A DNA stretch of 64,000 nt from Escherichia phage W115, in sequence record ON286974. One strand, given 5' to 3'. Position numbers and translations under genes: made by a program. Shown here in pieces: positions 15,677 to 18,308 of the stretch; positions within the stretch are counted from its first letter, which is position 1, and the number at the start of each line of letters is the position of its first letter. The notes below the pieces were generated by a model. That model searched no databases, was not told the origin of the DNA, and saw nothing but the letters and a program-made list of their open reading frames with translations.

Positions 15677-15856
15677 TTAGAACATTTTTGAAATTAATTC
15701 TGCTTTGATTTCGCAGAGAACATCTAAAGATTTCTCGTCACCCGCTTTTGCTGCTTCTGCTTGCATTTTTGAAATGGCTTCAATGTCAGTGCAATTATAA
15801 GCCGCTTGAACTTTAGCGATTGCGATGATTGCCGATTCGATGGTTAAGTTTTTCAT
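15677..15856 (-). CDS. hypothetical small protein (59 aa)
   Basis: Unlisted ORF MKNLTIESAIIAIAKVQAAYNC... with GGAGAA RBS downstream of a PeSL promoter. Confidence 0.45.
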   Translation of the reverse strand: MKNLTIESAIIAIAKVQAAYNCTDIEAISKMQAEAAKAGDEKSLDVLCEIKAELISKMF

Positions 15857-15888
15857 GTTTGATTCTCCTTTCGTTTCGGTATGTGTGC

Positions 15889-15918
15889 ATTATAGGGGAT
15901 CACCGATCCCCCTGTCAA
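15889..15918 (-). promoter_or_regulatory. PeSL-type early promoter (stem-loop between -35 and -10)
   Basis: TTGACA then palindrome GGGGATCGGTGATCCCC then TATAAT on the minus strand. Confidence 0.6.
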
Positions 15919-15925
15919 CAATTTT

Positions 15926-16444
15926 TTAGTTATTTTTTAATTGCTCATCTTGCAATAGGGCAATCACATGCTGGCGATGTTCTTCCGATTGAGGCACACC
16001 GAAAAAGTTTGTTTTGTAGAAATACTCTAATCGGTCTTCTCGTGTGCTCTCTTCCATCATGATCGCGGGTAGTCCGAGATTTCGGAAACGTCGCTTTTCT
16101 GCTGGCGTAAAATCACTGTAATACAACATAGAATCATCATTACCAGCAATGCTAAACTCATCCTTCATAAAGGAGAATATTGCGTTTAAACGCTGTTTAC
16201 CGTCCACGATTTCGATCTCATAGCGAGAGCCATCATCAATCTTAGCCATTGCGATAGCACCAACCGGAAAATCATTAATCAGGTTTTCGATAAACATACG
16301 TTTGTTTTCGGTGTCCCATACCAAAGGACGCTGATAATCTGGGTTCATGTTGATATAGCCATCTTCTAACCATGCATCATAAACAGAGATGACAAAGTTT
16401 TTAGTATTGGTATAGTAACGGCGTTTAGGCGTTAAACGGTTCAT
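15926..16444 (-). CDS. DUF262/ParB-like N-terminal domain protein
   Basis: Motifs NPDYQRPLVWD and IVDGKQRL typical of the DUF262 (GmrSD N-terminal / ParB-like) fold; start re-assigned to ATG 16444 with AGGAGA RBS, 1 nt after upstream stop. Confidence 0.5.
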   Translation of the reverse strand: MNRLTPKRRYYTNTKNFVISVYDAWLEDGYINMNPDYQRPLVWDTENKRMFIENLINDFPVGAIAMAKIDDGSRYEIEIVDGKQRLNAIFSFMKDEFSIAGNDDSMLYYSDFTPAEKRRFRNLGLPAIMMEESTREDRLEYFYKTNFFGVPQSEEHRQHVIALLQDEQLKNN

Positions 16445-16445
16445 G

Positions 16446-16778
16446 TTATAGTCTCCTGAATGGATCATCACGTAAATCAATATCTTTTAAGAACTCATCC
16501 CATGAATGGCGGATATTGTTCTTAATTCTCCAGATAAGAGCAGGGATTGAACGCTCTCCCATCTGGAAGTATGGATCATATGATCCGTATGCCCAATATG
16601 CTACTACAATTCCACAATCAGCGCAATAGTATTCTATTTCACTTGCTGGCGACCAAAGTCCATCAATATGATCGGTGATCTTGCTTTCGATGTTATGGCT
16701 ATGACAATCAGGGCAACGGATGCAATGACCTTGTTTATCGTAATTTGACGTTAGCGAATACTTAAACAATCTCATCAT
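16446..16778 (-). CDS. Cys/His-rich zinc-ribbon protein
   Basis: 110 aa with CIRCPDCHSH ... CADCG; ATGA start/stop overlap with upstream gene. Confidence 0.5.
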   Translation of the reverse strand: MMRLFKYSLTSNYDKQGHCIRCPDCHSHNIESKITDHIDGLWSPASEIEYYCADCGIVVAYWAYGSYDPYFQMGERSIPALIWRIKNNIRHSWDEFLKDIDLRDDPFRRL

Positions 16779-17491
16779 AGATCCTTATTGGCTTCAAATA
16801 CTGCCTTTGCGAATCCTCGCGGGGTAAGTGACCTGATAGTCTTTGTTCTGGTTCCTTTCCCGCCTAGCTTAGAATGCTGTTTACTGTACCCTTTATTAAT
16901 CTGCAACGGTTTCTTTTCTGGCATTATAAAGCCTTGTCCGGTCCATAAGCAAGTCTTTTTTGGGTACATATCACGGGCGGCAATATACTCAGGAAACGTA
17001 GGATGTTTATCATCTTCCGGCAAATAACCGCCATATTCCCACGGATGGAACATGTAATCAGGCTTACGCCACATGCTAGAGATAACGCTTACAGGATTCT
17101 CTATCATGTATGGAACTCCTAGCCATTCACCCAAATAAGCGGTTATTTTAGCTGCCCGTACATCATGAACTTGAATCAATGGTCCTTGTTCTCGTTTCTT
17201 TCGTTCAAAGTGCGCAGCGCCACTAACAGCTAAATTGGTGCACGGTGGGAATGCAAAGATAATATCCGGTTTCCCCCATTCAAGGTCCATTGCTCTTTCC
17301 AGCCAGTTCAAATCAATCCAGGTGTTTACATAGGTAATGTTTTGATGTTCAAATCTGGTATTATATTTTTTGTATGTACCGTGGTCGGCGTCATCCGCAT
17401 TAAAGCAGACTACCTTATGACCTGCTTTAGCCCATTCTAGCCCCATTATCCCCGATCCGTCAAAGTTGCAGAATATTAATTTTTGTTTCAT
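16775..17491 (-). CDS. compact cytosine-C5 methyltransferase-like protein (putative)
   Basis: 238 aa; motif I-like FCNFDGSGIMG, ADDADHGTYKKYN, motif IV-like FAFPPC, ENP (ENV-like), C-terminal RSLTPRGFAKA resembling motif IX; no obvious target-recognition domain. Confidence 0.45.
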   Translation of the reverse strand: MKQKLIFCNFDGSGIMGLEWAKAGHKVVCFNADDADHGTYKKYNTRFEHQNITYVNTWIDLNWLERAMDLEWGKPDIIFAFPPCTNLAVSGAAHFERKKREQGPLIQVHDVRAAKITAYLGEWLGVPYMIENPVSVISSMWRKPDYMFHPWEYGGYLPEDDKHPTFPEYIAARDMYPKKTCLWTGQGFIMPEKKPLQINKGYSKQHSKLGGKGTRTKTIRSLTPRGFAKAVFEANKDL

Positions 17492-17733
17492 ATACGCCCC
17501 TTTAATCCAACACAGATTTTAGAAGGTTCTTTGCCGTGCCACATTAAGTAAATTCCGTTAGTACGGCCTTGTTTTGTATATGATTCTTTTCTGATCTTCT
17601 TATAGTGTCGTGCTTCCTCAGCCGATTGTTTAGAATGTCGATCATAAAGGAAGAGGAACAAAGGCCACCCATTAGCGACCTTAATGCAGTTATTCAAAAA
17701 TTCCTTATTTCGTTTAATTAATTTTCTTTTCAC
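17488..17733 (-). CDS. hypothetical basic protein (81 aa)
   Basis: Track ORF; GTG start overlapping upstream stop (GTGA); part of the coupled operon. Confidence 0.4.
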   Translation of the reverse strand: MKRKLIKRNKEFLNNCIKVANGWPLFLFLYDRHSKQSAEEARHYKKIRKESYTKQGRTNGIYLMWHGKEPSKICVGLKGRI

Positions 17734-17981
17734 GCTGCCCCCATTGGTTTGATAGTAACAGAATCTAAAAGACCTTTGTTAGCCAGTTCGCGGCAAGTTT
17801 TCAGATCCGCAACTTCCCAGCCAGCCGCAATCAGGTTATCAATCAGGCTGTTAGCAATTTCTTCGCTCATGAAAGAGCACTGTTTGCCGATGGTGTAGCG
17901 TACACGCTGTAATTTCAGTTTACGGAAGCCTTTAACGTTCAGGTCTTTAGCGATTTTCTTTGCGGTTTCGATGTTAGCCAT
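17730..17981 (-). CDS. hypothetical protein (83 aa), first gene of the coupled operon
   Basis: Track ORF with AGGAGA RBS directly downstream of a PeSL promoter. Confidence 0.5.
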   Translation of the reverse strand: MANIETAKKIAKDLNVKGFRKLKLQRVRYTIGKQCSFMSEEIANSLIDNLIAAGWEVADLKTCRELANKGLLDSVTIKPMGAA

Positions 17982-18021
17982 TGTTTGATTCTCCTAAGTG
18001 GTATCTCGTCTTGATGGTTGT

Positions 18022-18050
18022 ATTGTAGGGGAGTTATCCTCCCCTGTCAA
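18022..18050 (-). promoter_or_regulatory. PeSL-type early promoter
   Basis: TTGACA, palindrome AGGGGAGGATAACTCCCCT, TACAAT on minus strand. Confidence 0.55.
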
Positions 18051-18064
18051 CACTTTTTATAAAA

Positions 18065-18232
18065 TTATTTGTTAATTTCTGGTGCGTTGCTCGGATAGTA
18101 ACCTTCTTTAACACCCAGATATTTTGCAACCATCCCTACAATCTTCTGTGCTACTACAATGTCAAATTTCAGATAATCTTCGCCGTGGGTTTCAATGATA
18201 TATGCTTCACATGCTGCTTTAGTCTCGAACAT
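18065..18232 (-). CDS. hypothetical 55-aa protein, copy 1 of a duplicated gene
   Basis: MFETKAACEAYIIETHGEDYLKFDIVVAQKIVGMVAKYLGVKEGYYPSNAPEINK; near-identical DNA copy at 21852..22019. Confidence 0.5.
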   Translation of the reverse strand: MFETKAACEAYIIETHGEDYLKFDIVVAQKIVGMVAKYLGVKEGYYPSNAPEINK

Positions 18233-18265
18233 TTTGATTCTCCTATTTCGTTTCGGTATGTGTGT

Positions 18266-18295
18266 AGTATAGGGGATCTCCCGATCCCCGTCAAC
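18266..18295 (-). promoter_or_regulatory. PeSL-type early promoter
   Basis: TTGACG, palindrome GGGGATCGGGAGATCCCC, TATACT. Confidence 0.5.
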
Positions 18296-18308
18296 AACTT
18301 TTTTAAAA

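Follow-up and report, generated by a model that had tools for sequence, protein, structure and literature searches.

Five consecutive minus-strand genes of Escherichia phage W115 (record ON286974), found within a 64,000-nucleotide stretch called here the window, probably constitute a mosaic cassette enclosed by two promoter/stem-loop (PeSL) elements in hyperplastic region 3 (HPR3) of RB49-type phages, in which shuffled accessory genes, one of them encoding a compact orphan Dcm-like methylase, stand side by side without forming one machine. The five genes, running from 17981 to 15926, had been proposed by a sequence-only reading, and all of them were recovered as open reading frames (ORFs). They are listed below with the two PeSLs, protein lengths being given in amino acids (aa).

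Heading PeSL: 18022..18050, minus strand; recognized in the sequence, 11 of 12 positions matched in the promoter scan
g1: 17730..17981, minus strand; ORF of 83 aa, homologue of RB49p190
g2: 17488..17733, minus strand; ORF of 81 aa with a GTG start, homologue of RB49p189.1
g3: 16775..17491, minus strand; ORF of 238 aa, homologue of RB49p189, putative Dcm-like methylase
g4: 16446..16778, minus strand; ORF of 110 aa, homologue of RB49p188, Zn-ribbon-like protein
g5: 15926..16444, minus strand; ORF of 172 aa, homologue of RB49p187, DUF262-only protein
Next PeSL: 15889..15918, minus strand; recognized in the sequence, 12 of 12 positions matched in the promoter scan

The source genome of the window is of the Krischvirus type (RB49-like T4-type coliphages). 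In each of 56 phage genomes at least 80% of the 2.5 kb around the five-gene block is matched, with 97-98% identity, and all 56 records belong to Krischvirus, including RB49, Phi1, JSE, GEC-3S, TB34 and SAP; single-sequence searches with the locus yielded near-identical Krischvirus contigs only. RB49p189 is named "DNA methyltransferase" in RefSeq, and "Dcm" or "putative C-5 cytosine DNA methylase" in other records. Hence the block, which had not been recognized as a T4 module from its sequence, consists of genes already annotated in RB49-type phages, its methylase belongs to a large annotated family, and its genes are arranged as a mosaic specific to this lineage. The block corresponds to RB49 ORFs 187-190 of HPR3, and it behaves as a cassette in being bounded by PeSLs and variable in content. 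PeSL-mediated excision and insertion have been demonstrated in this region, where the PeSL between ORF190 and ORF191, which is the one heading this block, recombined into mini-circles (Arbiol et al. 2010, PMC2839356).

The distributions of the five genes, counted in a collection of 50,697 phage records, are all different. By tblastn, g1 is present in 56 records, all of them Krischvirus, with one further relative in a metagenomic contig (L014, 72% identity). The second gene occurs in 173 records: in Krischvirus, 48 of the 56 records have it with an identity of at least 80% and about eight lack it, and 125 other records (Karamvirus, Dhakavirus, T5-like phages) have distant homologues. The methylase gene g3 is found in 1587 records (Drexlerviridae, Kagunavirus, Vequintavirinae and others), g4 in 292 records (Krischvirus, Nonagvirus, Felixounavirus), and g5 in 327 records (Krischvirus, the Pseudotevenvirus RB43, Slopekvirus, Mydovirus and prophage-like contigs). 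All five occur jointly in Krischvirus only, and co-occurrence or adjacency of the methylase, Zn-ribbon and DUF262 genes in independent lineages was not found.

Natural variants of the block differ in composition as well. The metagenomic contig L014 has no methylase gene; besides its relatives of g1, g2 (68%), g4 (66%) and g5 (56%) it contains a 46-codon ORF between the last two, and its g2 meets the Zn-ribbon gene in an ATGA overlap. In phage E26 g2 is absent and g1 directly overlaps the methylase gene, and a Krischvirus contig from IMG/VR (L015) has a recombinant g1 and no g2. The sequence-only reading had combined the methylase, the zinc ribbon and the DUF262 protein into one coupled device; five distinct distributions and variants lacking the methylase or g2 do not support this.

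Outside Krischvirus, similarity at the nucleotide level is limited to the methylase segment, which alone matches 532 other phage records at 60-80%, suggesting that this gene has spread horizontally by itself. In nearly all other phages the methylase is solitary; in particular, T1-like copies have no Zn-ribbon or DUF262 neighbour, and the gene that follows the methylase gene downstream there, compared as a candidate Zn-ribbon homologue, proved not to be one. The DUF262 gene, in its turn, occurs without g1-g4 beside it in RB43, Matisse, a P22-like prophage fragment and metagenomic contigs. Comparison of the proteins flanking it in Slopekvirus and RB43 showed that they are homologous neither to the Zn-ribbon protein nor to the methylase, and of 53 further viral loci containing a DUF262 relative, not one has homologues of g1-g4 within 4 kb.

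The single PeSL promoter that had been noted ahead of the five genes was found at 18050-18022, the next PeSL being located only at 15918-15889. The heading PeSL has the -35 box TTGACA, a 17-nt spacer with the G4/C4 stem-loop GGGGAGgataaCTCCCC, and the -10 box TACAAT; the closing PeSL consists of TTGACA, an 18-nt spacer with GGGGGATCggtGATCCCC, and TATAAT. Promoters are annotated at both positions in the GEC-3S record. PeSLs have been shown to act both as promoters and as terminators (PMC2839356); the closing one would end the cassette and drive the downstream 59-aa gene (15856-15677). Within the block, the promoter and hairpin scan revealed no promoter of comparable strength and no convincing terminator; one promoter-like match of 10 positions out of 12 (17463-17434) and two weak hairpins were observed. 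A single transcript of g1-g5 from the heading PeSL is thus plausible.

The junctions between the genes are tight, though not uniformly so. A start/stop overlap of 1-4 nt had been claimed for each of them; this is correct for the first three (GTGA, ATGA and ATGA), while the g4/g5 junction, TAAcATG, is a 1-nt gap. Each of the five genes is preceded, at a distance of 5-13 nt, by a Shine-Dalgarno-like purine run, and the GTG start of g2 is backed by its homologue from L014, which has the same beginning MKRKLIKRNK, translated from ATG. Such junctions are not exceptional in these genomes. In the homologous 41 kb of the RB49 annotation, 19 of the 71 same-strand junctions fall between -4 and +1 nt, and 27 of the 71 are overlaps. 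The same-strand spacers form two classes, of at most 21 nt and of 41-122 nt, and the PeSLs examined fall into the longer one. Other runs of tight junctions in these 41 kb are one of five (baseplate genes) and one of three, the latter being cd.2-pseT-pseT.2-pseT.3, where polynucleotide kinase is joined to spanin-like genes. Since tight junctions are common between unrelated RB49 genes, the coupling argues for co-expression and not for shared function. Of the earlier reading, plausible co-transcription is retained; an obligatorily coupled device of the methylase, the Zn ribbon and the DUF262 protein is not supported.

The best characterized component of the block is g3. The ordered set of C5-methyltransferase-like motifs reported for the 238-aa protein is present in full: FDGSG (residues 10-14), FPPC (81-84), ENP (131-133) and RSLTPRG (220-226). 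Across 29 aligned family members FxGSG, PPC, ENP, KKT, KLGGK and IRSLTPRG vary little or not at all; in particular, P82, P83, C84, E131, N132, P133 and, within RSLTPRG, RSL.R do not vary, and G12, S13 and G14 of motif I are conserved in at least 90% of the members. The candidate functional residues are Cys84 (FPPC), Glu131 (ENP) and Lys178/Lys179. The protein matches PHROG 757 ("DNA methyltransferase") over residues 1-237 with E 2.1e-90, and its size fits the range of this family (approximately 225-260 aa). The family is large: the protein database contains 7321 homologues, the best 120 of which are 219-259 aa long and 56-65% identical to g3, and in 1439 of the 1587 phage records the match extends over 80% of the protein or more. 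In the BASEL collection the family is labelled "Dcm-like". No match to g3 was found in NCBIfam.

The AlphaFold (AF2) model of g3, built on the 29-member alignment, has a mean predicted local distance difference test score (pLDDT) of 88.6 and a predicted template-modelling score (pTM) of 0.88, and it shows the three-dimensional fold of C5 methylases, so the methyltransferase fold expected for 16775..17491 is present in the predicted structure; Foldseek with this protein was uninformative. The observation that there is almost no room for a target-recognition domain is a fair description of the compact family as a whole, and we see in it no sign of inactivity. We consider g3 to be a putative compact orphan Dcm-like DNA cytosine-C5 methyltransferase of an experimentally supported family, its own activity being predicted from its sequence.

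The experimental support comes from a homologue. KarlJaspers (Bas06, Drexlerviridae) carries a 711-bp gene, bas06_0055, annotated as "Dcm-like C5 cytosine methyltransferase" and encoding 236 aa; g3 is 56% identical to this enzyme over the full length (E 5e-93). Phage K42 is 95.4% identical to Bas06, and its 711-bp dcm gene has been studied, in a preprint, together with the retron Ec86 (10.1101/2023.08.16.553469). In that study, K42 mutants escaping Ec86 carry a disrupted dcm; K42 Dcm expressed by itself is toxic solely in the presence of Ec86; its expression leads to 5-methylcytosine (5mC) in the multicopy single-stranded DNA (msDNA) of Ec86, as detected by liquid chromatography-mass spectrometry; and mutating CCWGG in the msDNA stem-loop alters the defence. 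CCWGG is reported as the target of K42 Dcm, and a C82A/E128A/K175A/K176A mutant served as a control. In the pairwise alignment with the Bas06 enzyme these four residues of K42 Dcm correspond to C84, E131, K178 and K179 of g3.

CCWGG occurs at 25 sites in the window, whereas dinucleotide shuffles predict 51 and a third-order Markov model predicts 66 (a 2.6-fold depletion relative to the latter); among the 16 NNWNN palindromes it shows the strongest depletion. We considered this depletion as a pointer to the specificity of g3 and rejected it, as CCSGG (ratio 0.34), CCAAG/CTTGG (0.27) and CAGGC (0.30) are depleted to a comparable extent.

A different reaction might be considered for g3, namely a part in cytosine hypermodification, with a one-carbon unit other than methyl or with post-replication action. 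It is suggested by phage SAP, for which 5-hydroxymethyldeoxycytidine (5-hmdC) and glycosylated cytosines have been reported, the pathway being unknown, while TB34, 99.96% identical to it, does not have them and Krischviruses lack known hydroxymethylcytosine (hmC) synthases and glycosyltransferases (PMC13390438). However, the five-gene block does not differ by a single nucleotide between SAP and TB34, and we therefore rejected it as the source of their difference. The only difference between the two phages within 15800-18300 of the window is a 79-bp tandem duplication in SAP, which comprises the PeSL and the ribosome-binding region near 15857, downstream of g5, and is absent from TB34 and from the window; in the SAP record (L007, OZ034687.1) it occupies 1554-1670, and the SAP annotation places a 38-codon ORF across it. 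Moreover, RB49 has the same gene, and its DNA is cut by HpaII and NheI, showing no modification at these sites (PMC4041780); the K42 homologue makes plain 5mC (10.1101/2023.08.16.553469). Finally, the modification profile of SAP coincides with that of seven Tequatrovirus phages from the same collection (PMC13390438), so that a sample mix-up or co-culture would be an alternative source of it. Taken together, we regard a role of g3 in hypermodification as highly improbable, and retain plain C5 methylation as its predicted reaction.

The last gene has the DUF262 signature reported for it as a 172-aa stand-alone protein: the motifs DYQRPLVW and IVDGKQRL are present, together with the C-terminal GVPQSEEH, and Pfam GmrSD_N (PF03235, DUF262) scores 72.9 bits against the cut-off of 33.2. 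In eight relatives Y37, Q38, R39, V42 and W43, D81, G82, K83, Q84 and R85, and GVPQSEEH are invariant. A ParB-N/sulfiredoxin-like fold, as expected for 15926..16444, is present in the best AlphaFold model (pLDDT 87.9; one of the five models is confident); the matches of g5 to sliding clamps among solved structures were discarded as spurious. The protein terminates at residue 172, directly after the DUF262 domain, and models from PADLOC and PHROG, 352-417 aa long, align to it through their N-terminal halves only. A DUF1524/HNH nuclease domain was not found in g5, nor was an adjoining nuclease gene.

The same holds for nearly all of its close relatives. A word-indexed homologue search gave seven matches only, and a profile search against 1.84 billion representatives, grouped in clusters at 50% identity, yielded at least 71 clusters at E of 1e-30 or lower. 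The best 150 relatives are 92-344 aa long, most of them approximately 160-190 or 250-300 aa, and in nearly all of these 150 the DUF262 domain reaches the C-terminus; a full nuclease domain would fit in none. As nuclease-less proteins prevail among the relatives, g5 belongs to a family of short DUF262-only proteins, and is not a decayed GmrSD enzyme. Two architectures are observed in this family, the domain alone (approximately 160-190 aa) and the domain preceded by some 110-140 additional N-terminal residues (approximately 250-300 aa), and the GVPQSEEH helix closes both. Probably g5 binds a nucleotide, and perhaps DNA; most likely, its role is independent of the methylase.

Another role for g5, that of a counter-defence decoy, seems to us rather doubtful. 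As a nuclease-less mimic, it would poison or compete with GmrSD/BrxU/SspE-type systems attacking methylated phage DNA, which would explain why it travels with the methylase here. The conserved motifs YQR..VW, DGKQR and GVPQSEEH in a protein that never has a nuclease domain, its location behind an early promoter, and the recurrence of the family in the cytosine-unmodified T4-like phages RB43, Slopekvirus and Karamvirus are consistent with such a role. TB34 is not restricted by BrxU (PMC13390438), though its unmodified DNA explains that as well. The decoy is purely inferential, however; most phages carrying DUF262 genes have no methylase nearby, most carriers of the g3 family have no DUF262 gene nearby, and g5 equally could be an exclusion or regulatory factor. 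It is also conceivable, with little weight in our estimate, that short DUF262-only proteins form a functional class of their own around DNA methylation, serving either as a nucleoside triphosphate (NTP)-dependent DNA-loading partner for minimal methylases or as a decoy against GmrSD/BrxU/SspE-type nucleases; if so, g3-g4-g5 of Krischvirus would be one instance of a methylase-plus-protector pair.

In contrast to the mosaic, the methylase, the Zn-ribbon protein and a DUF262 NTPase could together constitute one modification or anti-restriction device, in which the ParB-like protein delivers or regulates a methylase with little target surface. This alternative we consider unlikely, and several observations that count for it weigh against the mosaic. 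All 56 Krischvirus records preserve the order g3-g4-g5, these genes follow one promoter, and their start/stop coupling, by overlap or at 1 nt, could reflect a stoichiometric complex. Furthermore, a methylase gene is found near a short DUF262 gene in a few other loci. In one viral contig (IMGVR_UViG_3300023223_000579; L216 10416-12847, equivalent to L079 4416-6847) the short DUF262 gene has an 8-nt overlap with a gene for a 235-aa N6_N4 methylase, and a 437-aa fusion of ParB_N with an N6_N4 methylase is encoded 1.1 kb downstream; fusions of ParB domains with methylases are a known architecture. In Klebsiella phage DP (Mydovirus; L026 4303-6513) a 227-aa methylase of PHROG 799, without a Pfam match, is encoded on the same strand approximately 1 kb upstream of the DUF262 homologue, four small overlapping ORFs lying between the two genes; this loosely echoes the Krischvirus block, with another methylase family. 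In a third locus (L011) the DUF262 gene is overlapped by a gene whose 357-aa product is weakly similar to N6_N4.

These pairings are anecdotal. For 25 non-redundant loci, taken from collections of viruses and of bacteria, we compared the near (up to 2.5 kb, 122 kb in total) and far (4-10 kb, 265 kb in total) surroundings of short DUF262 genes, and Pfam-confirmed methylases were present in two of the 25 loci near and in two of the 25 far, with no significant difference in this small sample, where the insensitive motif prefilter may have missed families such as PHROG 799, so that a loose link may still exist. Among 131 neighbours in 23 DUF262 contexts, no family appeared in more than three contexts. 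A joint device is further contradicted by K42 Dcm, which methylates DNA when expressed alone from a plasmid (10.1101/2023.08.16.553469), by the solitary methylases of Drexlerviridae and other phages, by L014, which has relatives of g1, g2, g4 and g5 but no methylase, by the 53 viral loci described above, and by the frequency of tight junctions between unrelated genes. We thus retain the mosaic.

The assignment of g3 to the Dcm-like enzymes also meets some difficulties, which have to be set against the mosaic reading in the same way. Pfam PF00145 matches g3 at residues 10-100 only, with 15.6 bits against the cut-off of 22, and phmmer and family-profile searches of the PDB sequences give nothing better than E = 1, the value at which the family profile barely picks up M.HaeIII; since both remain below threshold, the family is a distant branch. 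The loop preceding KLGGK is GYSKQHSKLGGKG in g3 (GYSKQH in its subgroup) and DNPGWAKTGGKS (DNPGWA) in the K42/Bas06 subgroup, and the target motif of g3 may therefore differ from that of K42 Dcm. The E. coli B lineage carries the retron Ec86. It is reported for BL21(DE3) in the K42 study (10.1101/2023.08.16.553469), and RB49 is routinely propagated on E. coli B (PMC4041780). Growth of RB49 on an Ec86-bearing host would be surprising if its methylase acted on CCWGG and triggered Ec86, and raises the question of the specificity of g3 or of phage countermeasures. Finally, only canonical nucleosides, and no modified one, were detected in TB34 DNA by high-performance liquid chromatography/mass spectrometry (PMC13390438). 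Methylation of CCWGG would touch approximately 0.2% of cytosines (25 sites in 64 kb at 40% G+C), and at this level 5mC could escape detection in TB34 or pass for the product of the host Dcm.

The other three proteins are less informative. The first, g1, belongs to PHROG 14908 (function unknown; E 1e-58). PADLOC aligns it weakly, with E 1.9e-5, to positions 722-785 of the reverse-transcriptase model RT_UG35 (DRT), which has 938 positions, and a small domain may be common to the phage ORFan and the defence protein. The basic protein g2 belongs to PHROG 7065, also of unknown function; it is dispensable in some Krischviruses, and it diverges faster among them than the rest of the block (80-96% identity, compared to at least 95% for g1, g3, g4 and g5). 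The Cys-rich g4 has the pattern CxxCxxC...CxxC and scores 19.8 bits with Pfam Zn_Ribbon_TF, missing the cut-off of 29; it is assigned to PHROG 2993 (function unknown), and a word-indexed homologue search returned only g4 itself. Homologues of g4 unaccompanied by a methylase are found in Nonagvirus JenK1 and in Felixounavirus, where g1, g2 and g5 do not adjoin them either.

The following mechanism may be proposed. Five densely packed accessory genes, brought together by modular shuffling, would be transcribed, probably, from one strong early sigma-70 promoter. In g3, Cys84 of FPPC would attack C6 of a flipped-out cytosine, Glu131 of ENP would protonate N3, and the methyl group of S-adenosylmethionine (SAM) would move to C5. 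Being produced early, the enzyme would methylate a short motif while phage DNA is being replicated, and host DNA would be methylated incidentally. This could shield a genome with unmodified cytosines from C5-sensitive restriction enzymes, at the cost of making the phage visible to methylation sensors such as the retron Ec86. The DUF262 protein would derive from a family, carried by phages, in which the nuclease half of GmrSD-type enzymes is missing. Orphan phage methylases are ordinarily explained by protection from restriction, and, by analogy, g3 probably has an anti-restriction role; the modification or anti-restriction function once suggested for the block is thus reasonable for the methylase alone, and not for a joint device. 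The authors of the BASEL collection observed no simple relation of such genes to restriction resistance (PMC8594841).

With the mosaic reading, an apparent coupled modification machine is corrected to a set of shuffled accessory genes around an orphan methylase of a known type. RB49-type phages, whose cytosines are unmodified, are used in phage therapy and in screens of defence systems, and a Dcm-like methylase is relevant to the interpretation of their host range, as its family triggers the retron Ec86/Eco1 and may blunt C5-sensitive restriction. Short DUF262-only proteins, in their turn, represent a widespread, uncharacterized phage family.

Among known systems, the block resembles the PeSL and ORFan cassettes of RB49 and phi1 in its two bounding PeSLs in HPR3 and in a composition that varies among relatives. 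The cassettes of RB49 and phi1 mostly carry one to four ORFans, while this block has five genes; unlike in those cassettes, its internal joints are overlaps and a 1-nt gap, not PeSLs, and its internal indels (g2, the methylase) are located at overlapping start/stop junctions, not at PeSLs.

The Dcm of Bas06 and K42 shares with g3 the family, the motifs, the four aligned functional residues and the orphan state, without a cognate nuclease; it differs in being encoded in another phage family, where in T1-like phages the gene is solitary between small ORFs. E. coli Dcm/M.EcoRII, M.HhaI and M.HaeIII have in common with g3 motif I (FxGxG), motif IV (PC), motif VI (EN(V/P)) and an IX-like R.LTPR, while g3 is approximately 90-230 residues shorter than such canonical bacterial C5 methylases and its target-recognition region is much reduced. 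Among C5 methylases, the target-recognition region is shortest in the DNMT3 enzymes. In this respect the catalytic domains of DNMT3A and DNMT3B resemble g3, which fits the compactness noted for it at the outset; at the same time, they are only 12-17% identical to g3 and belong to eukaryotic, oligomeric enzymes with regulatory domains, and, given this low identity and different organization, function cannot be transferred from them to g3 by homology. Finally, g5 shares with GmrSD, BrxU and SspE the DUF262/ParB-N fold and the motifs QR..VW and DG(Q/K)QR, but g5 and nearly all of its 150 closest relatives are devoid of the DUF1524/HNH nuclease half, and g5 is therefore not a GmrSD-type restriction enzyme.

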